Below, in pieces: positions 8,376 to 62,597 of a stretch of DNA of 64,000 bases. The position numbers and the translations under genes were made by a program. The DNA is from an uncultured Mycoplasmatota bacterium. Lineage in GTDB: Bacteria; Bacillota_I; Bacilli_A; RF39; UBA660. Position 1 is the stretch's first letter; the number at the start of each line of letters is the position of its first letter. The notes below the pieces were generated by a model. That model did not search any database. It had not been told where the DNA came from and was given only the letters and a program-made list of their open reading frames with translations. The stretch lies in assembly GCA_946497955.1 (NCBI GenBank), contig CAMMMH010000002.1, positions 22,496 to 86,495 on the forward strand, in the 5' to 3' direction.

Positions 8376-8523
8376 AATATATTAGAAAAATTATGACTAT
8401 TGAAGAATTTTATGATATGGACAATGTTACGGTATATGAATATGATAAAAGTGATATTATAGAATATGATGTTATAATTCAAATTAAATAATATTTAATT
8501 TTATCATAATTTATCACATTAAA

Positions 8524-8538
8524 TTCCCTGTAGAGGAG
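8524..8538 (+). repeat. GC-rich motif copy TTCCCTGTAGAGGAG (preceded by ATTAAA)
   Basis: The only intergenic copy, 38 nt upstream of the ATG at 8577. Confidence 0.8.
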
Positions 8539-8576
8539 AAACAATTTATTTATTAACCTTTTAAATTATTTTTGTT

Positions 8577-8990
8577 ATGAATATAGTTTTAATTATTTTA
8601 TGTGTAATTATAATAGTTTTAATTGCACTATTAATTAAATTTGTTTTGGAATATACTAAAGTTATTCAAGAACAAATTACCGCTTATAAAAAACAACTTG
8701 ATTCTAATACCGAATTAATATCTAAAGATATTGTTGATGTTTATAATTTAATTTCTGATAAAAAATTATCTTTAAATAACAAATTAATAGATATATTTAA
8801 TAAATTAGATAAAACTGATAATAATGTTACTGATATTCTTAAAATATCTGATAATGTTGAAAATAAACTTTATAATATTACTAATGATATTAAAACTGTT
8901 AATGATAAAATAGATAAACTTAAAACTAAGAAACAAGCTAAAAATAGCTCATCTAATAAATCAACGATAAATAAATCGAGTAAACAATAA
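8577..8990 (+). CDS. membrane-anchored coiled-coil protein (137 aa)
   Basis: N-terminal TM helix IVLIILCVIIIVLIALLIKFVL is followed by a heptad-like N/K/D-rich region. This is the last gene of the + strand block. Confidence 0.55.
   Translation: MNIVLIILCVIIIVLIALLIKFVLEYTKVIQEQITAYKKQLDSNTELISKDIVDVYNLISDKKLSLNNKLIDIFNKLDKTDNNVTDILKISDNVENKLYNITNDIKTVNDKIDKLKTKKQAKNSSSNKSTINKSSKQ
8936..8949. promoter_or_regulatory. AGCTAWWWWTAGCT palindrome (AGCTAAAAATAGCT)
   Basis: Exact copy within the last 55 nt of ORF 8577-8990, 68 nt from the site at 9004. Confidence 0.5.
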
Positions 8991-9003
8991 TTCGTTAAAT
9001 ATA

Positions 9004-9017
9004 AGCTAATAACAGCT
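9004..9017. promoter_or_regulatory. variant palindrome AGCTAATAACAGCT
   Basis: Intergenic, at the convergence point; both AGCT arms are retained. Confidence 0.45.
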
Positions 9018-9064
9018 TAAATAATTCGTATTTTGAAGATTATAATTATTGTTTATAAATAAAT

Positions 9065-9110
9065 ATGGCTCACGATTAAGAATAAAATCTTTTTCGTGAG
9101 CCATTTTTTT
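9065..9110. terminator. bidirectional intrinsic terminator at the convergence of the + and - gene blocks
   Basis: ATGGCTCACGA (9065-9075) pairs with TCGTGAGCCAT (9094-9104), with inner AAGA/TCTT pairing. A T7 run follows on the + strand and an AT/T-rich tract on the - strand. Confidence 0.75.
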
Positions 9111-9128
9111 ATTTCATTAATCTACTGT

Positions 9129-12100: not shown

Positions 12101-15100
12101 CTAGTTCTTCTCTTTCTTTTTCTGTTAATTTACTAAATATATCTTTAGCATGAATTCTTCCATCATCTCCAATACATTTACTAAGTAATTCATTAATTTT
12201 ACCAATAATTTTTAATCTTCTACGATTAATTCCTTCTTCATTTTCACTAGGATCTCTAAGCATTCTATAGAAACTATCTTCTAATATAGGCAATCCAGAA
12301 GGAATATCTTTAATTAATATTGCTTCTCCAGCATTACTATCATAACTAAAATCATATTTATGTTTAGTAAGATTTCGTATAGTTTCTAAATCTTTATCGC
12401 TAAGTTTACGAGGATCAATATTTCCAAAATCATCATAAGCCATAGCTTTATCAATAATATTTCTTATTTTTTTACTTTTAACATTATCTTTATCTTTTAA
12501 AAGATCAAATGCTTTTTCTATGGCTTTATTAGCAGTTTCATCTAATATATAATAAGAATTATCTTTAACCCATTCATATGCTTCTCTATATGATTCATCT
12601 TTTAATCTTTCATCTAAAGGCATATTAGGATTATTTTTTTCAAATCTATTTATAATTTTAAGATTATTTTCTAATGCTTCTTTAAATCCATATGCTTCAG
12701 TCCAATCAAAATATTCTTTATCTAGTTTACGTTTTTCTTCTATAAAAGTTCTTAATTGATTAGCTCTAAATATTTCTTCTTGACTTTTTAATGTTGAAGT
12801 ATCTCTATATTCAGAAATTAATTGATTTATTTTCTTATTTATTTCTTTTCTTCTATCTCTTTCTTCTTTAGTAAGAATACCAGTAGGTCTATTATCATTA
12901 TATAATTCATGAATAAGTTTCATATATTCAACATATTCATTAGGAGCATTATTAATAACAATTCTTATAAGTTCATTCTTTCTTTTATAGTAATCACTTA
13001 TAACAATTTGTTCAGTATTTTTTGCATACCATTCATCACGTTTAAGTTTAGCTTTTATATATTCTATACTATCTTCTCCATAAGTGTCTCTAGCTTCTTT
13101 AACAGTATTTATTAAATTATCTCTATCTATTATATATTTATCGCTATAAGATCTAATTAATCTTCCTTTGCTATCAATAATATTTTTCCAATCAAAATCT
13201 CCTATTGCATTTAATATAGCATCTAACTTATCAAGAAATTGTTGTTTTCTTTTTGGTGCATCTATCATCATAGCTCGAGTCATAATATTATTAACTATTT
13301 TAACAATAACTTGAATTTGTTTATTGCTAATCATGGCGGTATCTCCAATCCAAGATTCCCACCAACCAGAATCACCAAAAGTATCATTTAAATTAACAAT
13401 TCCTATACGAATATTAGGATTAGTAGAATATTCATTAGCTATATAATTATTAAACATTTTTTTAAATCCTTGTTTAACAATTTCATTATTTCTAATTTTA
13501 TTAATACTATTTCTAATTCGTTTAATATAATTTGTAGTATCACTATCTATACCTTCAAAAGGTAAACTCATAATTTCTCCAAAAGCATTTCCAAAAGTAA
13601 TAGAATCTAATAATATTTTAATAATAGGTTCAACTTCTTCTTTATGTTCTCTTAATATATTATATAATTTATCGTCTCCTAAACTATATTCTTCGTCATC
13701 TATTTTATAATGTTTAATCGCATTATCTAATATATTACTATTAAGTTCCATATATTGTGCCATAATAGAATATATACTTTTACGATTATTAATAAGATCT
13801 TTAGAATTATGTTCGTTTATTTGTTTCATATTAATAATACGTATTGCTCTAATAGCATTAGGATCGCCTTGTCTTTCAGCTCTTTTTAAATAAGTTATCA
13901 TGCTATTTGCAATTCTATCAACACCATCAAGATTTTCATTTTGTTTTACATAAAAATCAGTAATATCAGAAGTAATAGCAGCCATATCTGGAGCAATTTC
14001 AGAATTTCTTTCTTCAGTTTGTTGTTCAACTTGCTCTCTAACATTTTCATTTGTTAATATTTCAACTTTATAATAAGTAGAAAATGCAGCATAACCTTCA
14101 AAAGCATTTTTATAAGCATCTCTATATTCAATAGGTATTTCTGTTATATCTAATTCATTTCTACTATTAATAGAAGCTGCAAAATTTTTAGGTTGTTTTA
14201 CTTTAGTAATACTAACAGTAATTATATCATCTCCTATTGGAATATTTTGAATAACACTAACTCCTTTAGGTATTTGACTATTTATAAATTTAGAATTAGA
14301 ACGAACAACAATATATGCACCTCTCTCCTCTACAGGGGATTTAATATAATCATTTATATGACTTATAAATTTATTTACTTCATCTTTTTCAACATTTTTT
14401 CCATTATTTAATATTCTTCTAAATTCATCTTTATTTTCAAGTATTTCTCTTATACGAGAAAATTTAAATTTAGGTATAATATGTTCTTGATAATCATTTT
14501 CTATTTCTTGAATTCCAGAACCATCTTTTAATATTTCTTTAGCTGTAGTATTTAAATCTATAGCAGCATTAATTAAATTATTATAAAATTCAATATTTGG
14601 ATATTGATTATTAGTAGGATTAACACTAAAATCTCCAGTTTCATTTCTTTCTAATAAGTTTAAAGGAATAAGATATATTCCGTTATTAGTTTTTCTAATT
14701 TTATATAAAACTGTTTTACGTTTATTTTTTCCAATAGTTTTATTAATTCTAATATATTCTTGAGAACTATTAGGATCACTAACGTTTATTTCAGTTAATA
14801 AATCTTTTGCTCTTTCTTCAAAAGGAATAAATACTAAACTTTTACCTTGACTATAAGTGTCAAATTTATATGCTAAATTAGATATTCCATATTTAGTTTC
14901 TGATTTACCTAATCTAATTGTTTTAACATATTCACTATGACTACGAATAAATTTATCAATAAATGAAGTAGTAGCATTATCTATAGGATTATTATAAAAT
15001 TGAAAAAGTTCTCTAATTACAGGTATAATATTCATACCCATATCTTCAATATTTTTATACATTGCATTGTTAGTAATAATTTTACTAAGTGCTCCTTTTT

Positions 15101-18100: not shown

Positions 18101-21100
18101 TAAAATCATCTTTAATATTAGCACAGTAATTATCAAAAAATTGCTTAATATTATCAGTTAATTCTTTATCTTTTTTATCAGCATTATCTATAATTTTTTT
18201 CATAATTTGAATACCTGCCTTATTTGTTTCATCTTTCATATGTTCAGGTACTTCTTGCTGCTTATATAAAAATCTATAATAGTAATCTTCAATAGCAGCA
18301 TAATTATTAGCTATAATGTCTGACTCAAAATTAGGATTTATGTCTCCATTATTATCCCAAAAAGTAAGAACATTTTTCTTAGCAGCTTTAGAAGTTTCAG
18401 CAGTATTAACTTGACCAATATCATATTTTATCATTATATCATATAATTGTTTAAGCTGAGTACCTTCTAATAATTCAGGTATAAGAACAAATTCTGCATT
18501 TTTAATTTGTCTAGGATAATAAGTTTTTGTAGCAGTATCAAATTGTTTATCAAAATAAAAGTTCTTTTGAATTTGAATACGAGCATTAATTTTAGCTAAA
18601 TCTAAATCTTCAATAGTTTTTTCTCCTTTACGAATTGCATAAATTTGAGAAAGAATATCTTGATATTGATTTAAAGTTCCATCAGCATATCTACGTCTAA
18701 TAAATTCTTCTAAAGTAATATAAGATTGTGCATCATTAGTTTTAGTATCACTTTTAAATCCACTATATATTTGTTGAGCAATTTTAGTTGCTTGCTCTTC
18801 ACTCATTTTTTCTTTAAGAATATCGAATATTTCTTTTCTAATTCTATCAGCATATTTACTTGGACCAACAGTATTATTAATAGTTATTGCTCTAAAACCA
18901 TTTCTAGCATTTTGAGATGTATAATAATCATTTGTTCCTTCTACAGGGGAATATGCACGAAGAAATTCCTGAATATTTACTCCAGCAACAGTAATAGGTT
19001 GTACTTTTCCATTTCTATCAATAACATCTTTTATTTTTTGACTTAAAGAATCATTAATATCAAATCCAGCATAAGATTTTCCAGCAGCTTGTACTTCTTT
19101 AGCTCGTTTTAAAAAATCTTGAGCATCTTTATAAAATTTTACATCTCCTTCAAATATATCATCAAAAGACATTGATATATTAGCATAATTAAGCATACAA
19201 TCAAAAATTTGTTCATATGATATAGTTTTAGGAGCAGATTCTATAAGTTTTCTATATTGTTGACTTCTACGAATAGTTTCTTTATTAAAACCTTTTATCC
19301 ATTGTTCTGTAATATTGTCTAAAACAGAATTAATTTCATTAGTTAAATTTAATACTAATCTGTCATTTTCTTCTCGTACAAGATTATTATTCATATTAAT
19401 AGTTCCAGACTTTTCAGTAAGCTGTATTAGACCTTCGTTAAATTCCCTGTAGAGGGAGAGTTGTTGTTCAATTAGTTCTTGTACATTAACTCCATCAGTA
19501 TTAAATAGTTTTCTAAAACTAAAGAAATTACCAGATAATCTTTTAACTTCTACTTTTTTACCATTTATTATTTTTTCTTCAGTTTTAATTAAAGTTTTAT
19601 TATAATGCGCTCTATCAATAAGTCCTACAGTATCTTTTCTTAATGTCCAATTACCTTTAGAATCTTTTATAAATAGATTATTTAATTGGTCAATAAAAGT
19701 ATTAAGTTCATTTAAAAGATTTTGATGTATTCCTAAAAATATAGGAACAGATTTATTTATAGTTGTTTCTATTTCTTCTTTTTCAATTCCTTCTTGAGTA
19801 ATTATTTCAGAAATTTCATCATAAAAATTATCACTCATATTATTTTCATTATTTCCAGTAATATCTTCTATAGAAATATTATATAAAATATTATTAGTTT
19901 CTCCTTGAACTTTATCTCCTTTTATCCAAATAATATCAGTTTCTCCTTTAGACGAATAAATTATAGGAATAGATACAGTTCCATCTTCATTATTGACACT
20001 ATACATACTATTATATTGTATATTATCAATATTACCATTTAATAAATTATATATATCTTTAGCAGTCCATATATTCTTTTTATTAACTATAGAACTATCT
20101 AAAATATATTCATTTCTCCAATCTACATATTTATCTTTATTTTCTGTTTTAATACCAAATTTTTCAATTTTACTTTTAACAGAATTTATATATTTAACTA
20201 CTGAAGAATAAACTGGACTAAGAATATTTGTTGAATTAAGTTTAGGAGCTTGAACAATAAAATTCTTAGGAGCATCAGAAGGAGTACGCATAAAATATCC
20301 AGCATATTTTTCTGATAAAATAATCGAAGATTCTCCTATATTTTCTCCAATAGAAATAGGAGTTAAATAAGTATATAAATTAGTTAAAAAATAATCTCCT
20401 TTTGACATTCTGTTATACAGTACAGCTTTACTATTATCACTATCTTTAATACCATTAAATAGACTTATTTGGATTATTTTGCGAGCATTTGGATTTACTT
20501 TTACATTTCCCATATTATCTCGCATAAATAAACCTTCAGAAACATAATGTCCTTTATTATCTTTTACACCCCAAAATAAAGGAGTATATTTATATTGTTC
20601 TCCTTTAGTAATTTCTTCCAATAATCTTTGTAAACCTGCATTAGAATCTTTTTTATTGCCATAAGCAATTTGTCTCATTATATTAGTAATATAATTGTTA
20701 TTAATAATATCAGATCCTAAATTTCCTTCTGCATTAACACTATTGAGATCATTTTTAACAGCCATATAATTAACTAACTTTTTAGCTATTTTAATTATAG
20801 GACTATTAAGTCTATCATATTTTACTTCAGACATATCCCTAATAGGAGCTTCTTTAGTAAATGATTTATAAGGATCAGATTGTTCAAAATGAAGTTTATC
20901 TTGAGACCATTCATAATATGCTGTTTTATAAGCTTGATCTGCCTTATTATATTCTTCTATTGTAGTTTCTATTTTATCAAGAAATTCATTTAAATTATCA
21001 ATAATAGAATCTATATTATCTTTTACTGTATTAGTATTATTATATAAATATCCTTTTAATGATACTATAGTAAGTTTTGGATAATATTTTTTTAATATAT

Positions 21101-22649: not shown

Positions 22650-22692
22650 AACTTTATTAATATTTATATGTATAAAAATAACCGCCAAATAA

Positions 22693-22741: not shown

Positions 22742-25700
22742 TTATCGGCAAGCGTATTTTAATTCGCCATTTTGAAGCATTTTAGCTATAATCGGCTTAT
22801 CTTGCTCGCTAAACATATTCAAATAGTCTGCCATGTTAGTGATACGAGTAACGCCGAAAGTTTCAGCAGTAGCATTACCGTCATTAGCTACATGGTCTAA
22901 TATATATTCTTCAGCAGAAGTAGTAGAAGAAAGTCTTTCATCATCTGTATCTAATTCTATATCTAATAAATCATCATCTTCTTTATTATTAGTATCATTA
23001 GTATCATTAAATTCATCATTAAAAGCTTCTGGATTATCTTCATCAAATTCTTGTGTTTCATCAATATCTGTATCTTGCTTAATTTCTTCAGTAATATTTT
23101 CTTCATTTTTAGTAATATCTTCTCCAGCATCATCTTTAATATTATCTTTAGCTTTTCTATTTGTTTCAGTAATATTTATATTATTATTTATATTTCCTAA
23201 AATAAGATATTGTTTTGCAAATATAGTATTATTTTTGACATTATTACTACCTTTTCCAAATAATTTTAATAATAAGTCAATTATTTTTTGCCATATAGAT
23301 TTAGTTTCATTAGAAATACCTTCAACGATTACTTCTTCTTTATCATACCTAGTATTATTAAGAAAATTCATTAAAGTAGGTTGAGTTAATGTTTCAACTA
23401 ACCATTCTTCAGCAAATATTCTTCTACGTTCTTCTTTAGTCATTTCAGCATATTGTGCATTTTTATCTGCTGTAAATTTAGTAAAATATTCAGTAGGATT
23501 AAATTTATTACTTTCTATCCATTGCCTTACAATAACAGCGTTTTTATATTCTGCACTATCTTCATTGGCAGTTTTAATTATATTATCAATAGCTTCTATT
23601 GTAGCATAATAAGTATCAAATAAATCATCAACTAATCCTTCTCTATCAAATAAATTTTGTTTACTTATTTTATCATGTAGATTTTCATGTATTAATAATC
23701 TTTTTAAAGTAAAAGGAGAACTATTAGCATAACTAGCACCTGCATTTCCAAAGAAAATTTTTCCATTTCTAAATACGGCATATTCTTTAGTTAATTTATT
23801 ATCATATCCATATTCTTTAGGAATTAAAGAAATACCATAAATATTAGTTCCACTTAGAAATTCTATTTCATCTTGAGGAATAGTAGCTTGTTTTAATAAA
23901 TCTTTTGAAGAATTAAATTTTTCTTTAGTAGCAGTTTTAATAGTATCAGCGATAGATTGATATTCTCCCTCTACAGGGGATAAATTAGATTTAGGTTTTT
24001 CAAGTACAGAAACATCGACATATAATGAATTAATTTTATCAGTATTACTAAAATATCCTCCATATTCATTTCTTCCTTGAGTAGTATTAAAAGCGTTTTC
24101 TCGTAAAACAAAATCTCCAAAATTTTCATAAACAGTTTTAATACCACCAAGTTCTATAACAAATTTTCCATTTTCTTTATACATATATGGATTATCTGAA
24201 GTATTATCTTTTTCAATATTATTTAAAGTATAAAATGTTCTATTATATACAACATTGTTAACTATTTCTTCAGCTATTTTTTCAATAAACTTTTTATTAA
24301 CAGAAATTGAACCAATAGTTTTATTAATATCTCCATTAGGTATATAACTTATTCCTGTTCCTAATTCATTACTATCTTTTTTAAATTTATTTATAACTAG
24401 TGCATATTTACCTAATTTTCCTCCAGTATTAAGAATAATTCTATTTCCATGATGAATAACACTATAACCTTGAAATATAGTAGGATTATTAATGCCAGGT
24501 CCATTAAATAAAGAAGATAGTTTTTTATCTACTTCTTCATAAGTATATCGTTTTTCTTGAAATCCTGTAATTATATCAATTATTTCATCTTTTAATTGTT
24601 TTTTAATTCCATCTTGTAATTTATTTGAACTAGTAAATAATACTAAAATAGGTGTATCTTCTCTACCTCCAATTAGCATTCCCATTGTTCCAATTTTAAA
24701 AGGAGCAAAAGTACTAATAGCTTTTTTAGTACCTTCATTTATAAGAACAGAATTATTTTGATCATTAATAACTCCTACTATTGGATTTTTATCAAAAGTT
24801 AAACCTATTTCAGATATACCATGTTCTTCTTCATCAATTAATGTTTTAACATCACTAGAATCTCCTATTCCATAAGTACTAGATAAACCTGCAAATTTAG
24901 TAATTATTTTTTTATTAGTATCTAATGCAGTTTGTATTCGATGAGTATTTTTAAAATTATTAAAAGCATTTTTAATCCATTGATTATAACTTTCTCTATA
25001 TTCTATACCAAGTTGTGCTAAAGGATTATAAAATACAATATTTTCTAATTTATTAATAATAAATTTAACTTTTTGTCTATCAGTAACATATTTATCAACA
25101 ACTTTTTTAGTTCTTTCATCATATTTTTTAGGTAATATAATTACTTTATCTTCTAATGCTTTTTTAATAGCTGGGTGATTTATAAATTTATCTATTTCTT
25201 CATCAGTTATTGATTTACTACCAGGATTAATATTATAAACATGTTCTTTATGAATAATACTCCAAAGAACATCTTCTTGGTCTAATATAGCATCAAATAA
25301 TTCATCTGTATTAGAAGAATATCCATTTTCAGTTTTAGATATATTATAAGCTATTCCTCCACTATAAGGACTAATAAAAACTTTATAACCAGTATTAGTT
25401 TTATTAGGAAATACTACAGATATATATCCTATTTCTTTACCTTTTACTTTAAAACTAATAGAATTAATATTTCCATTTCTATCTGGTAAATATTCTACTT
25501 CTACATCTTCATTTCCAGTTAATCCTGCTATTAATCGCTCATATTCTTCAGTACGTTTAGTTATAGGAGAAATATGCATATAATTATCTAATTGCACTTC
25601 CTGTAATTTAGCATTAGTAATACTATTAAAAAATTCACTAGGATTATTTAAAATAGCTGTTAAACTTCTACGAGAAGTAAATACATATTTAGTATTAATA

Positions 25701-28700
25701 GGATTATTAATATAATCTTTCATATTCCATAAAATATGTAATGCTGTATCTATATCAATTCCTATTTCTTCATTATATATAATATCATTAAATAGCTTAT
25801 CAAGATTAATTATAACTTTTTGTCCAGCAGGAGTAGAAATTTGTTTATATTCTTTATATGCCTCTAGAAAATTATCAATAATACTATCTAATTCTGATTC
25901 AGGAATACTTCTAGTTATTGCTGCCATATCTTTAGTCATATCTTGCATAGTAGCAATACTATCAGCTAATTGTTTAAATTTTTCAGCTCTACTATCTTTT
26001 CTAGAAGATAAACGTCTACTAATTGTATTAAGAGCAACTCTTACACCTCGTCTAGCAGCGGCAGGAGCAAATCCAACACTTACTCCTTTTTCTTCAATAG
26101 CTTCAGTAACCATCGAAATAATTCGTTGTACTTCAGGACTAGATATATCTTTATCTAAAGCGTCATTAAATAAATTTCTAGATGTTCTAAAAATATCAAA
26201 AGTTATAGTACTAGCCATTCCAACAGCTTCTTCATCAACACTAATATTATATGCTTCTGCTAATTTTTCGGCATCTTTTTTTGCAGCTTCATCAAATTGT
26301 TCAATATCTTCTGGAGTAATAACTTTTAATAACTTTTCTTCTTCAGATAATTCAGAATTATTTTCATTATCCACATTTGTTTTTGTTAAATTCCCTGTAG
26401 AGGGAGATGATTCTTTATCACCAGAATTAGTTTCAGTATTTTCTGTAATATTAGATATAGTTTTTATATCTTTTTTTATAGTTTCAGCTTTACTTTCTGA
26501 TACTTTTTTTCCATCTACAATAACTTCTTTTTCTTCTTTTTCTCTTTTTTTACGTTTTTGTTGTTCTTCTCTAACTGTTGCTATAATACTTTTAGTATAT
26601 GCATCTGTACTATAATATCCGATTTTTAAAATATCTAATTCATTTTTAAGTTCTTCTACTTTTCCAGACATAATATCTTCAATAGCTTGCTCAAGATTAT
26701 CTTGTTTTATAATATAATCTTCAACTTTTTTAGCAGCATTATTAAGTCTATCTTGAGTTAATCGATCAACTTGTTGAGATATTTCATTAATTCTATCAAT
26801 ATAATCTTGTTGATTTTTTGGTAATATATATTCTTGATAAGAATAAGCATCATCTAATCCTATTTGTTTATCAATAAATTCTTTAGTAGCATTTGTTATT
26901 TCTCCTTCTTCTTGAGAATTAATAATAGTTTCAATATCATTTAAAATATTATTAACTTCTGATGAAATATTTATTCCACTATTTTTAAATAAATTATTAA
27001 TTTGTTTCGTTATTTCTGTACTAAATAAATTATTATTTAAAAGATTAATTAAACTTTTTCTTCTATTATTATAATCTTTTTCATATTGATTTTTTGCTTG
27101 TTCAGTAATATTATGATTACGATAATCTTCATACATACTTTGCTCCATTCTATCAATTTGAGCAAGTTGTTTTTTAACATAATCTTTTAATGCTTTTCTT
27201 TTATAATCATTTATTACATTAATATCAGAAGTATTAATTTCATTTATTTTATCCTTTAATAATTGTCTTCTTTCATCAATTTCTTTTAAATATAATTGTT
27301 CTCTAGTAATTTCTCTAGCTGCTATTCTAGCTACAGATTCGTTTTCAACTTCTGTATTTTTTAAAATATTATATAAAGCAGTTTCATAATTATTATATAT
27401 TTCTTTACTTTTTTCTAATAATTGTTGATCAAATTGTTTATTTCCAATAGTTAAATTAAGACCAGTTTCTTTAAAATATTGTTGAAATTCTGGACTAGAA
27501 ATATAATCTATAAGTAAATTATAATTACCAGCATCAATTGCACTCATAGTAATTGCAGAAACATAATCATTTACTAATTTTGCTTTTTTAATTTCTGCTT
27601 CTTCTGGAGTAAGAGATTTATTAAGTTCAACTCCATCTTCTTTAATAATTTTACCTGTAATAGGATCAGTTTTATATTCATCTGGGTCTTTTAAATCTTC
27701 TAGTAATTTCATACTATCAACAAATTTTTTATTGATAGCAGCTCTTCCTTTAATTTCTTCAGATCTAATTTTTTCTTCAGCTGTCATATTTAAAGCAAAA
27801 TCTTCATCACTTATTTTTCCTTTTTTATGTTTATATTTTGCTTCAGCTTTTCTATATATATTACCTAATGCAGCTCCTCCTTTTTGAAAAGCTACTCCCC
27901 CAAGTACTCCCCAAAATGCTTGTTCCCATATTGCAGAATCAGATAAATAATTACCAATAGTACGAGGAGTATAATTAGGGTCGAGTATCATTTCAGCAAC
28001 TTCTTTTCCTTTTTCAGTTTGAATACCTTGATATCCTTCTTCTATACCTTCTGACCATTCTATTCCTGAAATTACACTTAAAGGATTCTTAAAACCTTCT
28101 TTTATTAATTCAATTCTATTATTTAACCAAGAAGAATTTTTAGCATTTTTAGTAGCAGTTTCTTCAGCTTTTCCAACAAGGTTTTTAATTGCTTTTTTAT
28201 TTTCACTTCTTAATTTAGATGTTGGAGTTTTTTTAGTAACTCCTTTCCAAAGACTACCAATAGCTTTAAATTGAGCAATATCCATTAATAGCATTGCATA
28301 ATCATTAACAAATGTTTTATCAGCAGATTCTCCAGCAATATAATTAGCTATTTCATCTAAACTTTTATCTTTAAATTGAGGATTTCTTTCAATTAATTCA
28401 TCTAATTCTTCTCCAGACATAGATTGAAGTTTGGCTAAAGTATTATCTTTAACTTCATTCCAAACTCCTCTAGCTTCCATATAATTTTCAATAGTTCTAG
28501 AAACAAAAGCATTTCCTACTATTTCAGAACTAAGTTTAATAGTTTTATCTAATCTTTCTACAGAAGGTGCTTTGCCAGAAATAAATTTAGAAGTATTTCT
28601 AGCTAATTTTGCTATTCCTCTAGTAGTATAATTAGCAGCATTATTTATAGCTCTAATTTTACCTAAAAGACTAATTCCTTTAGTAACTCCTAAAGTTGGC

Positions 28701-39590: not shown

Positions 39591-40430
39591 TTAGCCTTTT
39601 GGATTAAAAGTAAAATTAAAAAATGAATTTCGCCATGCCTCATCATTAATATCTCCTTGAGCATCTATTATAGTAGCTCTTTTAGCTTCTTCTTTAAGAT
39701 TATTCCAAATATAATAAGGATTAGTTCCATATTGAGAAGCTCCTAAATTAAATACTGGGTGTTTATATCCTCGGCATAACATTTTATATAAACAATAATA
39801 TCCAATAGCTTCTATTAATAATCCATTATTAGGGATTAATGGAAGTTCACAACTATAAGTTTTACTAATTTCAGTTTTAATTGTATCATATTCTACTGTA
39901 ATACAATCAGTATCAAAATTTAATTCAATTTTATTACAATCTATTAAAACAAAATTATGAGTACATTTATCTTGTTTATTAAGATAATTATACTCATTTA
40001 TTCTATATCTGCCAGGCCATTCTTTACTATTTAAAGTTTCTGCTAATAAATAATCTGGAGCATTAGCTGCATTATTATTTTCAATAATATCTATAGTATC
40101 AGGAGTAAATTCCTCATGTATGTTTTCTGTTAAATCCCCTGTAGAGGAACAACCACAACAAGATTTTGTATTTTCTGCATTTTCTATTTCACAACCATAT
40201 TTATCATATACTTTAATATTAGTATTAGCAATTGAACATGGAGTATATGCTATTCTCTCATTTACTTTTAAATTTATTTTTTTTCTTTCAGTACAAAAAA
40301 TATTTAATTGGTGCATAGCATCTATACACCAAGCTCCAACTCTAGGAATCCAATCGCTATTGTCAGGATTAAAATCATTATCTATTTTAGCAATTATTCT
40401 TTCTATATTTGTATATTTTTCTTTAATCAT
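39591..40430 (-). CDS. hypothetical structural protein (279 aa)
   Basis: ORF overlaps the upstream gene by 8 nt. Confidence 0.65.
   Translation of the reverse strand: MIKEKYTNIERIIAKIDNDFNPDNSDWIPRVGAWCIDAMHQLNIFCTERKKINLKVNERIAYTPCSIANTNIKVYDKYGCEIENAENTKSCCGCSSTGDLTENIHEEFTPDTIDIIENNNAANAPDYLLAETLNSKEWPGRYRINEYNYLNKQDKCTHNFVLIDCNKIELNFDTDCITVEYDTIKTEISKTYSCELPLIPNNGLLIEAIGYYCLYKMLCRGYKHPVFNLGASQYGTNPYYIWNNLKEEAKRATIIDAQGDINDEAWRNSFFNFTFNPKG
40135..40149 (+). repeat. GC-rich motif copy TCCCCTGTAGAGGAA (preceded by GTTAAA)
   Basis: Inside the 279-aa ORF in antisense, encoding SSTGDL. Confidence 0.8.
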
Positions 40431-44827: not shown

Positions 44828-45131
44828 GTTTTTTATTAATATGATTATATGTATTAATTATTATAAATATAGCATAAATAAAATAATATACTAAAAGTAA
44901 TTGTAAATCAGAAATATTTATTTTATATATAGAATCTATATTAGCTATTAATAAATTAATAAAATTTGCTGTTATAATTAATCTATGCCATTTACAAAAT
45001 CCAAATACATAACTACAAATATAAAGTAATATAGTAGTAATAATAGAATTTCCAAGTAAAAAATCTAAAAAAATACGATGGAATATACATATCAGTAATA
45101 TAGAATAAAGTATTATTAAATAACATTCCAA
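44775..45131 (-). CDS. multi-pass membrane protein lacking an in-frame ATG (possible frameshifted gene)
   Basis: The 118-codon hydrophobic ORF has only a TTG start. An ATG ORF (MKKLFVILIKYMPIIQM..., ATG at 45183) lies just upstream in another frame. Confidence 0.4.
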   Translation of the reverse strand: MECYLIILYSILLICIFHRIFLDFLLGNSIITTILLYICSYVFGFCKWHRLIITANFINLLIANIDSIYKINISDLQLLLVYYFIYAIFIIINTYNHINKKHEFKIKNIKRYSFRNSK

Positions 45132-53241: not shown

Positions 53242-54390
53242 TCAAATATTTTTTAATTTATTTTGATAAGCTACAACGATAGAATTATTCTCCGGATTTT
53301 TAAACCAAGCAATAGCTTCGTTCATATTTGCTCCAATAAATTCTCCTTCATTGGTAGTAATGTTTTGATTATATTGTGAACGAACTAATTCACCTCTAGC
53401 AATTAACATTTCTATAGTTGCAATTAATTTATTATCCTTATTATAGAAAATTTTATTAAACTTAGTTGGTTCTTCTGTACTAAATTTATCAAGTTTAATT
53501 TCTCGATCAATTCTAGATTCTGCTAAAGAAGAAATAACAGGAAGATTATAATTAACACAATATTGAATATAAACTGCATCAAATAAAGAATCATCAGCCA
53601 AACAAGAAACATAATTAGCTTTAGCTTTATTAATTTCATGTCTTTGTTTTCTAAGTCTTTCAGCTTCTTTTTGATCATCTTTAAAATAAAAACGAATAGA
53701 AGAATCAGCATTAATTAATGCCATATCTTTTGCTACATCACTATATAATAAACAATGTCTATACATAAGATATTCTTCTACATTTAAAGGATAACCTAAA
53801 GTACATTTAGTAGTTTCCAAAGCATTTAAAGCATTAATTTTTTGTTTTAAAGCCTTTTTAATATTAGAAGTTCCTTGTCTATTAGAAGAAAGATATTCTT
53901 GTTCAATTTTTTCTTCTTCTTTCTTAATTTTATAATAATCTTTTTTATGATAATAATGAAAACTAGTATCAAATTGTTTTCCCAATTCATCTACAGGGAT
54001 TTTAATATTATTCAAATATTGTTTAACTCTTTGAATAAAAGAAGGGTCTGAAGGCGACAAACCAACAATATTTGGAAAATAAGTTTCAACTTCTAATTTA
54101 TTTGAAGAAAGAATTTTAGAAGAATTACAACAAGAACCTATATAATCTCTTCTTTTAGGAAGAACTTTATCATTTGCTTTTCTATATAAAGAAGTACTTT
54201 TTACTAAAGCAATAGTTACACTACGTTTATCTGTATATTCGTCATTTGAATTATAATCTTCGTTAAAATTATCTTCTACGGTAGATTCTTTTACAGAAGA
54301 ATTATTATTTGTTTGATTATTCTGTTTAGATACTTCAGAATTTGGTTTATTAAATCCAAATTTAATTTCTTTGTCAGAATTATTTTCCAT
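53242..54390 (-). CDS. head-associated structural protein (382 aa) with N/S-rich disordered N-terminus
   Basis: Immediately downstream of the major capsid gene. Confidence 0.6.
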   Translation of the reverse strand: MENNSDKEIKFGFNKPNSEVSKQNNQTNNNSSVKESTVEDNFNEDYNSNDEYTDKRSVTIALVKSTSLYRKANDKVLPKRRDYIGSCCNSSKILSSNKLEVETYFPNIVGLSPSDPSFIQRVKQYLNNIKIPVDELGKQFDTSFHYYHKKDYYKIKKEEEKIEQEYLSSNRQGTSNIKKALKQKINALNALETTKCTLGYPLNVEEYLMYRHCLLYSDVAKDMALINADSSIRFYFKDDQKEAERLRKQRHEINKAKANYVSCLADDSLFDAVYIQYCVNYNLPVISSLAESRIDREIKLDKFSTEEPTKFNKIFYNKDNKLIATIEMLIARGELVRSQYNQNITTNEGEFIGANMNEAIAWFKNPENNSIVVAYQNKLKNI

Positions 54391-57335: not shown

Positions 57336-57391
57336 ATATTTAAAAATGGCATATATAAATTATTTCCCATATAGAAGATAATAAATCAATA

Positions 57392-57405: not shown

Positions 57406-57470
57406 AATATAATTTACTTTATCGACTATACAGGAAATAACTAAATCAGATACCAATTTCAAATAATATA

Positions 57471-59885
57471 TTATTTTTTACTTTTTACATCATATTTATT
57501 TTTATTTTCTTGAGCAATTTTAAGTTTAGTTTCTATATCTTTCATTTTAATTTGTCTATCTCTTTCTTTATTAACAGTATCTAAAATATTTCTTTCTCTT
57601 TCAGCATTTAATTTTTCTTGTTCAATTCTAACTTTAGCGTTATTTAATCTATCATTAATATCATTTTTCATACTATTAGTAATATCAGCATTATAGCTAA
57701 TCATGTTTGCATCAGCCCTAATTAATTCTATCTGTTGATCAATATATCCTTCAAGTTCTTTAGTTTTACGATCTTCTTCACCTTTAGCAGATATTTTTCT
57801 TAATTCAAACTCTTGTTTCATTTGTTCTAATTCTTGATCCATCTGCTTCATTTGTATTTCATAATTTTCTTTTTGTTCTTGATACTTTTTGATTAATTTA
57901 GTAATAGCAGCGACATTATCTCCAGTAATAGCAGCAATAGCCATTAAACTATCCCCATTTTGAGAAGCATTAAATGCAAATTGTTTAAGTTGGTCTAATT
58001 TTTCTTTTTCTTTAACAGAATTTTTTGCTTTAATAACATAATCCGCATATAAATGTTTTTCAACATCTAAACTAACATATTTAATATTATCGTTATTATC
58101 TTTATAAGAAGTATCTAATCCATCAATCCAGGCTAATTTAGAATAATCCATATCTCTAGCATAATCTCTTTCTCTTAAGCAATCCATTATAAATTCTATT
58201 ATAACACTTCCCATAGAACCTCTAGTAATCGCTTCTTCAGTAATACCTTTACCTGCACTATTAGCAATTTCTCCATATCTTTGCGGAGTCATATCGACTT
58301 GCATATTTGCAGTCTGTTGTATTTCATTTAGCAAATTTCCAAGTTGAGTCAAATAATCTCCAAATGAAGCATTTAACATTCTAACTTGTTGTGCTCTTAA
58401 CATACCTTGGTCATTAGTATCATCTATATATAGTATACCATCAGCTATCATTTTATATATAGTATCTTCTGAATTTTCTCCTAATAAAGATTTAGCAATT
58501 AAAAGAATATTTAATTTATTTTTAGCAATTACCATTTCTCTATGATAAGAAACAATATTATAAAATACTTGAAAAGGAGTTACAATTTCTACTATACTAA
58601 ATTTACCAAAACCAGGAAGTAATTCATTTATACCATTATAAGGTAATTTACCATTTCTATTATAATGAATAGCTCTAGCTCCATAAGGATATATAGCATC
58701 ATTTCTTCCACCAATACGAATACTTTCATAAACTTGTGGTTCATAAACATATTCTATTGATAAATCCCCTGTAGAGGGATTGAATTGATAATCATCGTTT
58801 TCTACTCTAGTATCTATAAGTCCAATTTCATTAACATAAGTTACTATAGCTTTTCTAGCTTCACCTCTCCAAACTACATGCCAAACATCATATAAATCTA
58901 CATTAGTATCTCTCATAATATTTGGTGTCTTTCTAAATAGTTCTCTATCTTCCATAGAATATTTTTTACATATATCAGGAAAATATCTCTCATAAGTAGT
59001 AAACATTAAATCTTTAGTATTATCTATAGATTGCTTTGCATAATAAGTATTTAAAAATTCTCTTTGGTTATCATCTAAATAATCGTCAAATTCATCTACT
59101 ATTTGTTGATATGTAAGTTTTCTTCTACACACAAACATATCATCATCTTCTCTAAATATATTATCAGTATTAATAGGATATGCATCAATAGGAGCTATAT
59201 TTCTTTTTATTAGTTTAGTTCCAACAACGTCACTATATGTATAACATTCTCCAAAAGTTACAAAATCAAAATAAGCTCTAGCATAAAATAAAGTATCTTC
59301 TGTAATATCTCTAATAACATTAAAAATTTCTTGTCCTTGAGCACTTATATCATCAATATAATTTTCATTAAATTCTTTAATAAAATTTTCTATATCTAAT
59401 GATTGATTAACATTAAATTCTTTAGGATCATTACCTTGATTTATCCATTGTTGATAACTTTCTTGTATTTTAGCAGCTATTTTTTGTTGTACTAATATAG
59501 ATAATTCTTGTTTTAATTTAGCATTTTTACTAAGAATAACTTCCGGATTGTTAGCACTAACAATAAAATCGTGAGGATTTTTTATATATTCACTAACATA
59601 TCTTCTAATAATTCCTTTCATTAAATCATAATTACGCATTGTTGCAGGAAATCTTTTATATTTTTCCTGTGTAGCGTTATAAGGATTTAATATTTTTTTA
59701 TAAAATTCATCTGGAATTTTACCATTTAAAATATTATATTTAATTTCTATATTAGTATCATTTCCTCTATTATTAACAGCTTGCTGTATAATCCAATCAC
59801 AACAAGATGCTGCCCAAGCATCATCTTTTTGACTAGTCGGAATACGTTGTAAAGGAAAATCATAACTTTGCAAATTACTTCTCAT
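57471..59885 (-). CDS. portal protein
   Basis: 804-aa ORF directly downstream of the large terminase, with a C-terminal coiled-coil, charged tail. The call rests on position and size. Confidence 0.7.
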   Translation of the reverse strand: MRSNLQSYDFPLQRIPTSQKDDAWAASCCDWIIQQAVNNRGNDTNIEIKYNILNGKIPDEFYKKILNPYNATQEKYKRFPATMRNYDLMKGIIRRYVSEYIKNPHDFIVSANNPEVILSKNAKLKQELSILVQQKIAAKIQESYQQWINQGNDPKEFNVNQSLDIENFIKEFNENYIDDISAQGQEIFNVIRDITEDTLFYARAYFDFVTFGECYTYSDVVGTKLIKRNIAPIDAYPINTDNIFREDDDMFVCRRKLTYQQIVDEFDDYLDDNQREFLNTYYAKQSIDNTKDLMFTTYERYFPDICKKYSMEDRELFRKTPNIMRDTNVDLYDVWHVVWRGEARKAIVTYVNEIGLIDTRVENDDYQFNPSTGDLSIEYVYEPQVYESIRIGGRNDAIYPYGARAIHYNRNGKLPYNGINELLPGFGKFSIVEIVTPFQVFYNIVSYHREMVIAKNKLNILLIAKSLLGENSEDTIYKMIADGILYIDDTNDQGMLRAQQVRMLNASFGDYLTQLGNLLNEIQQTANMQVDMTPQRYGEIANSAGKGITEEAITRGSMGSVIIEFIMDCLRERDYARDMDYSKLAWIDGLDTSYKDNNDNIKYVSLDVEKHLYADYVIKAKNSVKEKEKLDQLKQFAFNASQNGDSLMAIAAITGDNVAAITKLIKKYQEQKENYEIQMKQMDQELEQMKQEFELRKISAKGEEDRKTKELEGYIDQQIELIRADANMISYNADITNSMKNDINDRLNNAKVRIEQEKLNAERERNILDTVNKERDRQIKMKDIETKLKIAQENKNKYDVKSKK
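58765..58779 (+). repeat. GC-rich motif copy TCCCCTGTAGAGGGA (preceded by GATAAA)
   Basis: Inside the portal ORF in antisense, encoding NPSTGDL. Confidence 0.8.
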
Positions 59886-59916
59886 ACTATTATATTTATA
59901 TTTTAATTAATATTTA

Positions 59917-62172
59917 TTAAAACCATTCTCTACTTAATATATCATTTTTATCAATATTTTCTGCTGTTAGAGGTTTTCTATTTTTTAGCTCTTCTTCTGC
60001 ATGAAGATTCATTGCTTTCCATTCAATACCTCTTAATAACATAGATGAAACTCTATCATAATTACCTTTTATTCCCCATTTTTTTAATTCAAGTATAGTT
60101 TGATAATCGTATATTCTATGAAAATTTCTTATAGGATTACCTTCACTATCTTTTCCTATTTCTTCATAAAGAAATTCTTTAGTTAATCGAACACAATCTA
60201 GTTTATGTTGCTCACCAGATATATTATATCCATAAGTAGTATTTATTTTTCCTTTAAAAGTAGGATCAAAAACTTCTAAAGGTTCACAAGATAAATATTT
60301 TAAAGCATTCCATTTTCTAAAATTAGAAACAGTTTCACCACGATTTATTTCGACATTTGTTGTTCCAACACAATTATAATATCTAGCTAATAAATAACAT
60401 ATTCTATCAGCTTCTTCAAGAGTATCAGGTCTTCCATAATAAGTACAAACAAGTTTTTGTTTATATCCATTAAGATAATGAGGATTCATCCAAACTTCAA
60501 TACTATTATGAGAATGTTTTAAAGTAATTTCGTTTTTATTTTTATCAACACCAACAGGGTCATAAGTAATACTATATAATCCTTCTGGTATTTGTTTAAT
60601 AATTTTACCATCTGATCTAGTAACATCTACATATTCTGGGGGAAACCATCTTCTAATACAACCATGAGGATCTTCATGTCCTTTTCTAGGAACTCCTACT
60701 ATATAATCATATGTTTTCTTATTTTCAGAATGTAAACGAGCATTAGATTTAAATACAACTGTGCCATTATCTTCCATTTCAAGCATACCATCTACATAAA
60801 AATGTAAATCAGTATCAACTCTTAATCGCTCTTCCCATGCACTTAATTCCTCAGAACTAAATATATTTTCAGATGCACTACTAAAAGATTCCGCAGGAAA
60901 ATTAGCATATTGTCCTAAATAATTAATATAATCAGAATATTTTTTAACAGTTTCTTTTTTTCTTAATCTTTCTCTTCTAGAAATTTCTAATCCTATTAAA
61001 ATATTACTGTTACCATTTTCATCTACTCCTTTTATACCATTTATATCTCCTTGTAATCCCCAGCAATAAGGTTTAAAAAATCCACAAGTTTCATTTCTGC
61101 AATCTCTATCCCATACATTTTCAAAAGGCATAAAATTAAAACCTTTTACATCATAAAAATTTTGTTCAAAAGTTTGCATATTTCCAGAAGTAGCAGTTCC
61201 CCAAGCACATAACATACCAGTTGTATAAGCCCCAGTTCTCATGGCAGGTTCAGTAACATTCATAAAATCATCAAAATTATCCATAGTAGAAACCTCTTCT
61301 ACTTTAACTTTAACAGCATCTTTACCAATAGCGCAATCTGGATTATTTGCAGCACTAACACTAATAAGAGCGGAACGCCAAGATTTATCTGCTTCTACTC
61401 CAGTTGGTAATTTATATCCTAATCTAAAATCAGATTTAACTGAACTAAATATACCTCTAACAAAAGGAGTATTTTCTTCATAAAATTTTAAATCATTTAC
61501 AGCAAAATCAGTTAAACCTCCAGTTTGAGTAAGATACTTTTTATCCACAGCTACATGAATAACAACTTTTCTACTTTCACAATTAACAGAATTTGCACTA
61601 TCAGCAGCCATCATATATGAAAACCCACCACGACGAGTTTTATCAATAATTAAATGAAAACCATTTTTTTCTGCAAATTCCATTACATGAAATATCCAAA
61701 ATTGACTATCAAAGAATTTAGGAAAATCATAAGTTTTCTTACCTGTAGCTATAATTCCATTTTTAATAGTAGCTTCATTTAATTGTTCAATTCTACAATA
61801 ATTTAAAAAATTATAATGACTACCAGTAATTCTTACATTATGAATAGTACCATTAGGATCCATTAAACATGGAGCTGAAAAACCATGTTTTCTTCTATAT
61901 TGTTCTCTTTTTCTAAATTGTCTATGTGGAATAGAATCAACTTTATAATTAGTATATTTTCCTTTATTCTTTTTATAAAATGTAGCAGCCTCATAAAACA
62001 ATTCAGTATTAACAAATTTCCAACCAGGTTCTATATTCATTAAAAATCCGCCACTATCTCCTATTAAAAATAAATCATCATCATCAATATAACCAGCATC
62101 TTTTGCATGTTTATATCGAGATGATTTATTAGGTTCGTTAATATAATCTAAAAAAGGATAACCTGTATTCAT
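59917..62172 (-). CDS. terL: terminase large subunit
   Basis: KTRRGGFSYMMAADSA is Walker-A-like (K.Rq.G.S), and AIGKDAVKVKVEEVS is Walker-B-like. The 751-aa ORF lies immediately upstream of the portal. Confidence 0.75.
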   Translation of the reverse strand: MNTGYPFLDYINEPNKSSRYKHAKDAGYIDDDDLFLIGDSGGFLMNIEPGWKFVNTELFYEAATFYKKNKGKYTNYKVDSIPHRQFRKREQYRRKHGFSAPCLMDPNGTIHNVRITGSHYNFLNYCRIEQLNEATIKNGIIATGKKTYDFPKFFDSQFWIFHVMEFAEKNGFHLIIDKTRRGGFSYMMAADSANSVNCESRKVVIHVAVDKKYLTQTGGLTDFAVNDLKFYEENTPFVRGIFSSVKSDFRLGYKLPTGVEADKSWRSALISVSAANNPDCAIGKDAVKVKVEEVSTMDNFDDFMNVTEPAMRTGAYTTGMLCAWGTATSGNMQTFEQNFYDVKGFNFMPFENVWDRDCRNETCGFFKPYCWGLQGDINGIKGVDENGNSNILIGLEISRRERLRKKETVKKYSDYINYLGQYANFPAESFSSASENIFSSEELSAWEERLRVDTDLHFYVDGMLEMEDNGTVVFKSNARLHSENKKTYDYIVGVPRKGHEDPHGCIRRWFPPEYVDVTRSDGKIIKQIPEGLYSITYDPVGVDKNKNEITLKHSHNSIEVWMNPHYLNGYKQKLVCTYYGRPDTLEEADRICYLLARYYNCVGTTNVEINRGETVSNFRKWNALKYLSCEPLEVFDPTFKGKINTTYGYNISGEQHKLDCVRLTKEFLYEEIGKDSEGNPIRNFHRIYDYQTILELKKWGIKGNYDRVSSMLLRGIEWKAMNLHAEEELKNRKPLTAENIDKNDILSREWF

Positions 62173-62177
62173 ATAAA

Positions 62178-62597
62178 TTAATTTATAAATAAACTAATAA
62201 TTATAGCTAAAATAGAAGCTCCAGCAATTCCTCCAAAAATTTTAGTTTTTGTTTTTTCTTTATCTAATTCATTTTTAATATTATTATTCAAATCATTTGC
62301 TTTACTTATTTTATTTTGAAAATCATTAATGATAAGTTGTTGTTCATTAATATATTTATCTTTTAACTGTATAATAGAATCTTGTTGTTTATTAATTTCT
62401 AATAAATATAATCTTTCTATCATTTTAACATTAGCTTGTTTAATAAGATAAATAGGAATTACCGCAACTGCTGTATCTGTTTGTATTAAATCCCCTGTAG
62501 AGGGAATAGCATTATCATTCGCTAATACTAAGGATTGTAAATTGTTTAATAGCATCGCTATCACTAGCATTAATAGCTTTATTTTTTTCATATTCAA
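62178..62597 (-). CDS. secreted/tail-anchored coiled-coil protein (139 aa), spanin-like lysis accessory candidate
   Basis: N-terminal signal-like KIKLLMLVIAMLLNNLQSLVLA, a central coiled coil, and a C-terminal TM IFGGIAGASILAIIISLFI. It overlaps the previous membrane-protein gene. Confidence 0.5.
   Translation of the reverse strand: MNMKKIKLLMLVIAMLLNNLQSLVLANDNAIPSTGDLIQTDTAVAVIPIYLIKQANVKMIERLYLLEINKQQDSIIQLKDKYINEQQLIINDFQNKISKANDLNNNIKNELDKEKTKTKIFGGIAGASILAIIISLFIN
62491..62505 (+). repeat. GC-rich motif copy TCCCCTGTAGAGGGA (preceded by ATTAAA)
   Basis: Inside the 139-aa ORF in antisense, encoding IPSTGDL. Confidence 0.8.

Follow-up and report, generated by a model that had tools for sequence, protein, structure and literature searches.

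The 64-kb window considered here (the whole stretch of DNA that was analysed, 64,000 nucleotides corresponding to positions 22,496 to 86,495 of contig CAMMMH010000002.1 in GenBank assembly GCA_946497955.1) comes from a crAss-like phage of the Intestiviridae/Crudevirinae type, whose capsid, portal and terminase genes are ~75% nucleotide-identical to those of p-crAssphage and mouse crAssphage. Dispersed through the window are 12 copies of a short, GC-rich motif with the 11-nt core CCCTGTAGAGG, and these probably represent one lineage's version of an ancient, genome-wide set of cis-acting DNA sites of the Crudevirinae that is under selection at the level of the DNA. Each Crudevirinae genome or fragment examined (the window phage, p-crAssphage, mouse crAssphage and ~30 fragments) has a motif version of its own. 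Full-text searches of the literature turned up no earlier description of the motif, although the coverage of such searches is incomplete and a prior description is possible; it is not mentioned in the 2023 review of the Crassvirales, in the study of p-crAssphage as a phage-plasmid or in the study of the virion RNA polymerase (RNAP).

A rescan of both strands of the window returned 10 exact copies of CCCTGTAGAGG, seven on the plus strand and three on the minus strand, together with two copies that carry one mismatch each, both on the minus strand (18938, with GAAGG, and 53988, with GATG), so that the strand split of the 12 is 7 plus to 5 minus. Single positions given here are those of the 11-mer core, and the spans in Table 1 are those of the ~21-nt copies. 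A first-pass annotation, made from the letters of the window, had listed the same copies at the same coordinates, had noticed ATTAAA, GTTAAA or GATAAA ahead of 8 of the 12, and had placed all copies but one inside eight open reading frames (ORFs); all of this was reproduced, 8526 being the sole intergenic copy. The additional "relic" that it reported at 5192-5206 is doubtful, as it has three mismatches and lacks a partner motif in the mouse phage. The flanked consensus in the window is RTTAAATYCCCTGTAGAGGRA.

The G+C content of the window is 24%, and in dinucleotide-preserving shuffles of it only 0.07 copies (exact or with one mismatch) were expected against the 12 observed. When synonymous codons were shuffled with the proteins and the codon usage of each gene held fixed, 0.057 exact cores were expected inside genes against 9 observed, with a maximum of 1 in 300 shuffles, and shuffling the order of codons in the window genes left 0 cores. 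An unsupervised k-mer enrichment scan likewise returned the motif as the top signal in the window phage, in p-crAssphage and in the mouse phage. Other assemblies of the window phage extend beyond the window and hold three more exact copies just to its left, in SNF2-like, primase-like and ligase genes, and one near copy just to its right; the ~9 kb to the right, which contain the lysis genes and a presumed early block of small ORFs, have no copy. Two palindromic look-alikes with TTTA in place of TGTA were also seen: TTCCCTTTAGGGGAA is in a 168-aa ORF (window 43237-43251), and the other, AATTCCCTTTAAAGGAATT, falls between genes to the right of the window (locus L217, 6684-6694).

Because the synonymous-codon and codon-order shuffles remove the motif, the signal lies at the nucleotide level, and the reading frames tell the same story. 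All five sense copies are read as (S/I)-P-V-(E/D) and five of the six antisense copies as (P/S)-S-T-G-(D/N), the remaining one (19445) being read as S-L-Y-R-E; translation of all 11 intragenic copies agrees with the frames that had been reported earlier. In each orientation one frame contains a stop codon, either TAG from the core or TAA from the flank, and among the open frames the one that gives a small hydrophilic peptide is used. One orthologous site, upstream of terL, is read as PSTG, PLRG, HPPRG or LFTGQ in different relatives. A repeated peptide as the source of the motif was rejected on the grounds of these different peptides and frames and of the shuffles with proteins fixed, and the earlier proposal of a constraint on nucleic acid, not on peptide, is thereby upheld.

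Protein and codon alignments to orthologues show no length difference between genes with and without the motif at any alignable site. In the portal gene, for example, the motif lies, with no gap, on the same codons that specify NTLIGD, NPLAGD and NQAIGD in relatives; a CCCCGTAGAGG version of this site is found in two relatives (L177 and L185), has been lost through one synonymous change in their sister L178, and is absent from the other relatives. The motif is overprinted, without change of length, onto variable loops of unrelated proteins.

The positions of the sites are conserved as well. Positional analysis drew on two complete distant genomes, those of p-crAssphage and the mouse phage, and on ~20-kb fragments of about 30 others. 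Mapping of the intragenic window copies onto the two complete genomes through protein alignments gave 19 alignable comparisons, and in 11 of them the other genome has its own motif at most 27 nt away and in the same orientation relative to the gene, as compared to ~0.15 expected from site density; eight of these 11 co-localisations are no more than 2 nt off. Such partners exist for seven of the 11 intragenic copies (14327, 19445, 23968, 26393, 32821, 40137 and 62493), so that position and orientation have been kept while the surrounding proteins diverged to 22-60% identity. The three copies to the left of the window are likewise conserved in position. At the depth of p-crAssphage and the mouse phage, conservation was not found for 35182, for the portal copy or for 18938 and 53988, the two copies with one mismatch. 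The first of these two may be either lineage-specific or a chance match; the second may be a coincidence of coding, since the peptide IPVDELG that it encodes is kept in all relatives, whose DNA there has no motif.

The most widely shared site is that upstream of terL, where 17 of 19 relatives have a copy, antisense to terL, 297-341 nt before the terL start; the p-crAssphage copy (91287) and the mouse-phage copy (7204) are each at most 1 nt from the aligned position. When orthologous sites are anchored on the motif, identity is 79% in the core but 34-37% in the flanks, the latter being the background level. A T at -8 from the anchor, about one helical turn from the core, is invariant, and TA-N5-core can be described as a bipartite site that spans about two helical turns. 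The conserved span is ~18-20 nt, with no target duplications and no common flanks beyond ~20 nt. Over a much shorter distance, between the p-crAssphage reference and strain ZA (96.3% identity), 31 of 32 sites are kept.

Table 1. Copies of the motif in the 64-kb window, with their gene context and their counterparts in p-crAssphage and mouse crAssphage (MH616963)
Copy	Span	Core position	Strand	Gene context	Orientation and reading	Counterparts in relatives
exact, ATTAAATTCCCTGTAGAGGAG	8518..8538	8526	+	only intergenic copy; ~40 nt upstream of the ATG of a 137-aa membrane/coiled-coil ORF (8577-8990)		mouse: same-orientation copy at 68797 (- strand), directly upstream of the ORF at the position equivalent to 8577-8990
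exact	14325..14345	14327	-	giant RNAP gene (9129-22688)	sense, K-S-P-V-E-E	mouse: distance 0, same orientation; protein 27% identical
one mismatch, CCCTGTAGAAG	18936..18956	18938	-	giant RNAP gene	sense	no orthologous partner; nearest copy 444 nt (p-crAssphage) and 473 nt (mouse) away
exact	19437..19457	19445	+	giant RNAP gene	antisense, S-L-Y-R-E-F-N	same orientation: mouse 1 nt off, p-crAssphage 21 nt off
exact	23966..23986	23968	-	2172-aa RNAP-associated gene	sense, S-P-V-E-G-E	distance 0: p-crAssphage 42678, mouse 53526; protein 22-31% identical
exact	26385..26405	26393	+	2172-aa RNAP-associated gene	antisense, S-P-S-T-G-N-L	mouse: 27 nt from aligned position, same orientation
exact	32813..32833	32821	+	721-aa gene (homologue of p-crAssphage gp47)	antisense, N-P-S-T-G-N-W	p-crAssphage 51406, 2 nt off
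exact	35180..35200	35182	-	near 3' end of 1529-aa gene	sense, Y-S-P-V-E-E	no exact partner; mouse sense copy 207 nt away
exact	40129..40149	40137	+	279-aa CrAss_Ring_1 tail protein gene (Pfam PF24228)	antisense, S-S-T-G-D-L	p-crAssphage 58727 (1 nt), mouse 36034 (6 nt)
one mismatch, CCCTGTAGATG; doubtful member	53986..54006	53988	-	382-aa gene	sense, IPVDELG	
exact	58759..58779	58767	+	portal gene	antisense, N-P-S-T-G-D-L	
exact	62485..62505	62493	+	139-aa spanin-like membrane ORF upstream of terL	antisense, I-P-S-T-G-D-L	most deeply conserved site

The possibility that the motif is private to this genome was considered and dropped. When IMG/VR and metagenome contigs were scanned for the exact pattern AATYCCCTGTAGAGG, only single, scattered, chance-like matches were returned; relatives fetched by way of their portal and terL proteins hold one-base and flank variants of the motif, in many copies each. 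The p-crAssphage version, ACYCCCCGTRGAGGATGGA, is present in 32 copies (18 plus, 14 minus) with the long form tagACYCCCCGTRGAGGATGGA, and 31 of the 32 match CCCCGT[AG]GAGG exactly, the other having a single mismatch; in a test on half of the p-crAssphage genome there were 15 core matches against 0.00 expected after shuffling. Mouse crAssphage has ~22 copies of the version CTGGCCCGTAAAGRGA. Among relatives in IMG/VR, those with a terL ~82% identical have the versions CTCCCCCGTAGAGGGAG, CCCCGTAGAGGAA and ATCCCCCGTAGAG, and those with a terL ~60% identical have CCCCCGTAGAAGA and GCTTGCCCGTAGGG. The consensus common to the Crudevirinae versions is TA-N5-CC[C/T]GT[A/G][A/G]AG[G/A], within which a 7-9-nt core, CCCGTAG(A), is shared over wide distances. 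A peculiarity of the window is a C-to-T change in the core, from CCCCGTAG to CCCTGTAG, in all 12 copies. The C and T forms are found side by side in a single related contig (loci L012 and L183), and both also occur at an orthologous site in the L177/L186 clade; this core position can therefore drift, and in the window lineage it has become fixed at every site.

The claim is limited to the Crudevirinae, because Bacteroides phage crAss001 (Steigviridae, MH675552) has a different enriched 9-mer and the marine crAss-like phage phi14:2 has none. The crAss001 9-mer, CTCCAGAAG, usually followed by nGA, is an observation in its own right: it occurs in 27 copies in 100 kb on both strands (loci L215 and L216), as compared to ~1.7 expected under a third-order Markov model; the first 50 kb have 14 copies, where shuffles give 0.47, and one copy lies in a small gene upstream of terL, antisense to terL.

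The sites are indifferent to the direction of genes. Of the window copies, 5 are sense and 6 antisense to their genes and 1 is intergenic, and p-crAssphage has 10 sense, 11 antisense and 11 intergenic copies, the intergenic ones pointing both ways. Site density in p-crAssphage is equal in the replication arm and the structural arm, and across the Crudevirinae there is about one site per 3-5 kb, on either strand and mostly intragenic. The p-crAssphage sites are spaced more evenly than at random (P = 0.005-0.012; largest gap 7.1 kb, P = 0.005), and so are those of the mouse phage (P = 0.03-0.04); for the 12 copies of the window, evenness was not significant.

From a single window, the first-pass annotation had recognised the constraint on nucleic acid and had missed the subfamily-wide, positionally conserved set of sites; of the explanations that it offered, a GC-stem hairpin, a promoter for the virion RNAP and a palindromic insert fare badly below, and a binding site for a phage DNA-binding protein and a nick or modification target are viable. 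The versions of the motif are concerted within each genome, in their lineage-specific flanks and, in the window phage, also in the C-to-T core change, which suggests one phage-encoded trans-acting reader that co-evolves with its sites. This reader is probably a sequence-specific protein, either a DNA-binding protein or an enzyme, and since sense and antisense copies are balanced we infer that it would serve a DNA transaction and not the control of mRNA synthesis; its role would accordingly be sought in DNA metabolism or organisation.

Programmed nicking is the single most likely concrete mechanism, although on our analysis it is tentative and, taken alone, rather unlikely; the best overall explanation, in which the set of sites is combined with nicking, is held with moderate confidence. 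Under this proposal, the sites would be the targets of a phage-encoded site-specific nickase, with the order's hallmark PD-(D/E)XK nucleases as candidates. The nickase would make programmed single-strand interruptions in replicated or packaged DNA, on both strands, and the ATP-dependent ligase of the phage would seal these interruptions after entry. Nicking is favoured because the closest documented analogues of the motif are the nick-motif sets of other phages, and because crAssphage also has terminal repeats, a ligase and PD-(D/E)XK nucleases: the terminal direct repeats of p-crAssphage are ~1.85-2.45 kb long (PMC6712665), a DNA ligase is encoded by these crAss-like phages, and crAss-like phages encode PD-(D/E)XK nucleases whose role is not known (PMC10136315).

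Sets of nick motifs have been described for phage tf and ~60 related Pseudomonas phages, for phiKMV-like phages and for T5, and co-evolution with a nickase has been proposed for them; the motifs are TACT/RTGMC and WACTRTGAC in tf, LUZ24-like phages and Rembedalsseter, and CGACN5CCTACTCCGG in phiKMV-like phages (PMC3517423, PMC11780129). Like the crAss sites, these are over-represented asymmetric 9-20-mers that occur about once per 3 kb, are mostly intragenic and are unrelated to gene expression; their positions are similar among relatives with little nucleotide identity, one-base variants separate lineages, and the phages that carry them are podoviruses whose genomes have terminal direct repeats and are laid out in two gene arms. 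The two differ in that the crAss motif is longer and has lineage-specific flanks, that tf-group sites cluster toward one genome end whereas crAss sites are evenly spread, and that no nick is known from any crAss-like phage.

Several further observations weigh against this account of the sites and of nicking. The known nick motifs are on one strand only, whereas the crAss sites are about equally on both (7 plus and 5 minus in the window, 18 and 14 in p-crAssphage), and one inverted pair in p-crAssphage, at 22901 and 22928, is only 27 bp apart, so that nicks on opposite strands would create a fragile site there. Two convergent pairs in p-crAssphage flank AT-rich spacers upstream of both RepL genes, an arrangement that is more iteron- or origin-like. 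The contig ends of many independent assemblies of the window phage, a weak proxy for nicks, do not coincide with motif sites. Marine phi14:2 has no comparable motif, though ligase-type and nuclease genes are present in it. A search for the trans-acting factor with Pfam and PHROG found no DNA-binding domain in ~35 ORFs, small ORFs included, in and around the window, in scans that left ~10 kb of the phage's genome outside. Finally, the depletion of polymorphism in the p-crAssphage core relative to strain ZA is modest and comes from one strain pair (the core differs at 9 of 352 positions, including 4 at the degenerate R, and the neighbourhood at 132 of 3184). It is possible, and we put it forward as a tentative suggestion, that the ~20-30 co-evolving cis sites of each Crudevirinae genome serve a DNA transaction that has no described counterpart, such as interruptions on both strands or dispersed, strand-specific initiation of replication.

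The principal alternative to nicking is that the sites are bound, without catalysis, by a protein that organises the genome, whether for initiator or primosome loading at sites resembling iterons or DnaA boxes, for partition or condensation in a phage-plasmid, or for silencing similar to that by stoperators. As a class these roles are about as likely as nicking, which still makes the class a tentative one, and no single role within it is more likely than nicking. Binding that is indifferent to orientation fits the use of both strands and the even spread, and the bipartite TA-N5-core spans about two major grooves. The convergent pairs of p-crAssphage are also in its favour: each of the two RepL genes has, a short way upstream, an AT-rich spacer of ~100 bp with such a pair around it, and one pair lies beside an origin predicted by others. 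The window phage, however, keeps the motif without a recognisable RepL and without a motif pair in its divergent or early region, and RepL was rejected as a universal reader on the ground that this phage has no match to it. Initiator, centromere and operator sites are, moreover, normally clustered or intergenic, whereas here 11 of 12 are intragenic, and the ORF domain scans found no binding protein.

Stoperators are one comparable system. In Cluster A mycobacteriophages these 13-bp sites, read by repressors such as L5 gp71, lie mostly in short intergenic gaps and are oriented with transcription, and the dispersed sites reportedly co-evolve with their repressor. Tens of dispersed asymmetric sites, a single phage protein as reader and the co-evolution of consensus and specificity are features that they would share with the crAss sites, but the latter are mostly intragenic and do not follow the direction of transcription; we know of no repressor in these crAss-like phages.

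A composite element of ~55 nt was seen around some p-crAssphage copies (BK010471). It consists of a GC-rich part, either runs of CGCTN pentamers or a 5-6-bp stem with a 3-nt loop (e.g., GGCAC-TAC-GTGCC), followed by an 11-nt spacer TnCGCTAnACT and then the motif, and it occurs at 28030-28240 (locus L188, 28030-28240), at 95700-95930 (locus L189, 45700-45930) and at 6022, 93667, 44953 and 58727. Two convergent pairs of composites flank homologous, origin-like AT-rich spacers of ~100 bp upstream of the two RepL genes; the composites at 44953 and 58727 are intragenic.

It is unlikely that the sites are starts of RNA synthesis on unwound or single-stranded DNA, that is, primer or origin sites, or promoters of T7 type or N4-like, used by a two-barrel RNAP or a primase. 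The first-pass annotation had put forward a variant of this reading, a hairpin promoter for the virion RNAP, by analogy with phage N4. In N4, three promoters at one genome end, each with a stable 5-7-bp stem and a 3-nt loop, lie upstream of early genes and are used by a T7-like enzyme. The window phage shares with N4 a giant RNAP packaged in the virion, and its motif is a short GC-rich inverted repeat, but the crAss stem is marginal and not conserved, the copies lie in the bodies of middle and late genes and point both ways, the presumed early block has none, and the RNAP is of the two-barrel type; the N4-type promoter reading is rejected on these grounds.

The hairpin itself does not hold up any better. 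Folding of the copies as single-stranded DNA gave -0.8 to -4 kcal/mol, and 6 of the 12 were matched by at least 43 of 200 shuffles; the stems are of 3-6 bp, the loop is of 4 nt in seven copies and of 7-12 nt in the others, and the pairing registers vary. Versions in relatives such as CCCCCGTAGAAGA cannot form the stem, since the complementary 3' arm is missing, and 3' arms vary without compensating changes; nor is there covariation between ACT/ACC and ATGGAG/ATGGAA among the p-crAssphage copies. Rfam recognised no known RNA family in the window. A structured element is not supported.

Other lines of evidence on RNA starts point in both directions. The sole intergenic copy lies 40 nt upstream of an ORF, in sense, in both the window and the mouse phage, the intergenic copies of p-crAssphage have an upstream GC hairpin with a 3-nt loop, and priming sites on both strands would be plausible. 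The 3' half of the motif, GTAGAGGGAGA or GTAAAGGGA, also resembles what we take to be the initiation region of T7 and T3 promoters, TATAGGGAGA or TAAAGGGAGA, which is a lead only. Half of the copies, however, point against genes, and no strand switch was seen around any candidate origin. Neither p-crAssphage nor the mouse phage has an annotated T7-like single-subunit RNAP, and the orientation expected of its promoters, in sense and upstream, is not that of the sites. The virion RNAP of phi14:2 transcribes single-stranded and not double-stranded DNA, which favours this reading, but the early transcripts that it makes have no common upstream motif, and the middle and late genes of that phage use the host RNAP (bioRxiv 10.1101/2020.03.07.982082).

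A further reading, that the sites are targets of base modification or are signals read by host enzymes in the manner of Chi or DNA-uptake sequences, is improbable. It draws some strength from the tolerant coding frames, the use of both strands and the even spread, all of which recall the behaviour of the uptake signal sequence (USS), the DNA uptake sequence (DUS) and Chi, from the 7-9-nt core shared over wide distances, and from the distribution of motifs among phages, with none in phi14:2, the one marine, non-Bacteroides crAss-like phage checked, and a different 9-mer in the Bacteroides phage crAss001. USS, DUS and Chi are read by host machinery (an uptake receptor, or RecBCD/AddAB), are 5-12 nt long and are far more numerous, and USS and DUS accumulate by drive. 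Like the crAss motif they are over-represented on both strands, inside genes, in variable protein segments and in frames that preserve coding, but they are not kept as individual orthologous sites across deep divergence, whereas the crAss sites are. The crAss site, at ~18-20 nt with lineage-specific flanks, is also far longer than Chi or typical methylation motifs, and its flanks differ between close relatives. The annotations of p-crAssphage and the mouse phage include no methyltransferase, and PacBio-based crAssphage work, which was not aimed at such a motif, reported none.

That the copies are instead mobile, in-frame palindromic inserts (similar to Rickettsia palindromic elements, as the first-pass annotation had suggested, to miniature inverted-repeat transposable elements or to GC clusters), or that they result from a repeated peptide or from chance, is extremely improbable: the motif is a GC-rich quasi-palindrome in a 24% G+C genome, its length is a multiple of three, and Rickettsia palindromic elements are also repeated nucleotide elements that lie inside unrelated genes without destroying them, but those are patchy insertions of 100-150 bp that add peptide, whereas the crAss motif is of ~20 nt, causes no change of length relative to orthologues, lacks target duplications and wider common flanks, and occupies ancient orthologous positions, not recently dispersed ones, in genomes with proteins 22-60% identical, while varied peptides and frames and the shuffles dispose of peptide and chance. 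A site for the small terminase (TerS) or a pac site was rejected too, as the ORF upstream of terL is spanin-like and p-crAssphage has defined terminal direct repeats, not headful pac packaging; no pair of p-crAssphage motifs is spaced at the published terminal-repeat length.

The genome in which the sites were found is ~93 kb long. The plus-strand part of the window holds the end of a block for replication and nucleotide metabolism (ligase, dNMP kinase, ThyX, Gp157, DUF932 and dUTPase), and the minus-strand part encodes the giant RNAP, RNAP-associated proteins, tail and ring proteins, capsid, portal, terL and lysis genes. ENA and Logan samples of several projects yielded more than 20 contigs that are 99.98-100% identical to the window (100% for most), and the phage, which is absent from IMG/VR, stands out among the Crudevirinae as unusually clonal, widespread and very rich in A+T. 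The only divergent strain seen is 96.6% identical and overlaps window positions 1-9465 only. In that strain (locus L223, 17553-19120) a gene for an HNH endonuclease (285 aa) splits the dUTPase, as in the intron-containing gp34/gp35 of p-crAssphage; the dUTPase of the window (7770-8375) is uninterrupted, so that a homing element is present in some members of one phage species and absent from others. A terminator-like hairpin at 9066-9115, GGCTCACG-N20-CGTGAGCC followed by a T run, marks the point where the two gene arms meet, with the convergent 137-aa ORF on one side of it and the end of the giant RNAP gene on the other. The ORF directly upstream of terL (62178-62597, minus strand), at a place where one could look for a small terminase, encodes a signal peptide or N-terminal transmembrane segment, a coiled coil and a C-terminal transmembrane segment, and resembles a spanin; no candidate for a small terminase was recognised in the window. 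The 241-aa ORF at 4725-5450 (plus strand) has a weak Pfam match to the Thoeris inhibitor Tad3 (E = 0.0016, 18.6 bits as compared to a cut-off of 27).

The crAss-like phages dominate the human gut virome, and the prototypical crAssphage is among the most abundant of human gut viruses. The replication mode and packaging signals of these phages and the roles of their hallmark nucleases are unknown (PMC10136315), and an ancient, selected set of sites gives a direct handle on one of these processes. Native long-read data that already exist for crAssphage-rich samples could be re-read at the 32 p-crAssphage positions, and the lineage-specific versions amount to a natural covariation experiment for finding the reader protein. 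It might also be possible to use these versions as compact sequence signatures by which Crudevirinae lineages are typed. It follows from the overprinting of the sites that some residues (PVE, PSTG) of portal, tail, RNAP and replication proteins are dictated by a DNA signal, which bears on how variable loops in these proteins are to be interpreted.

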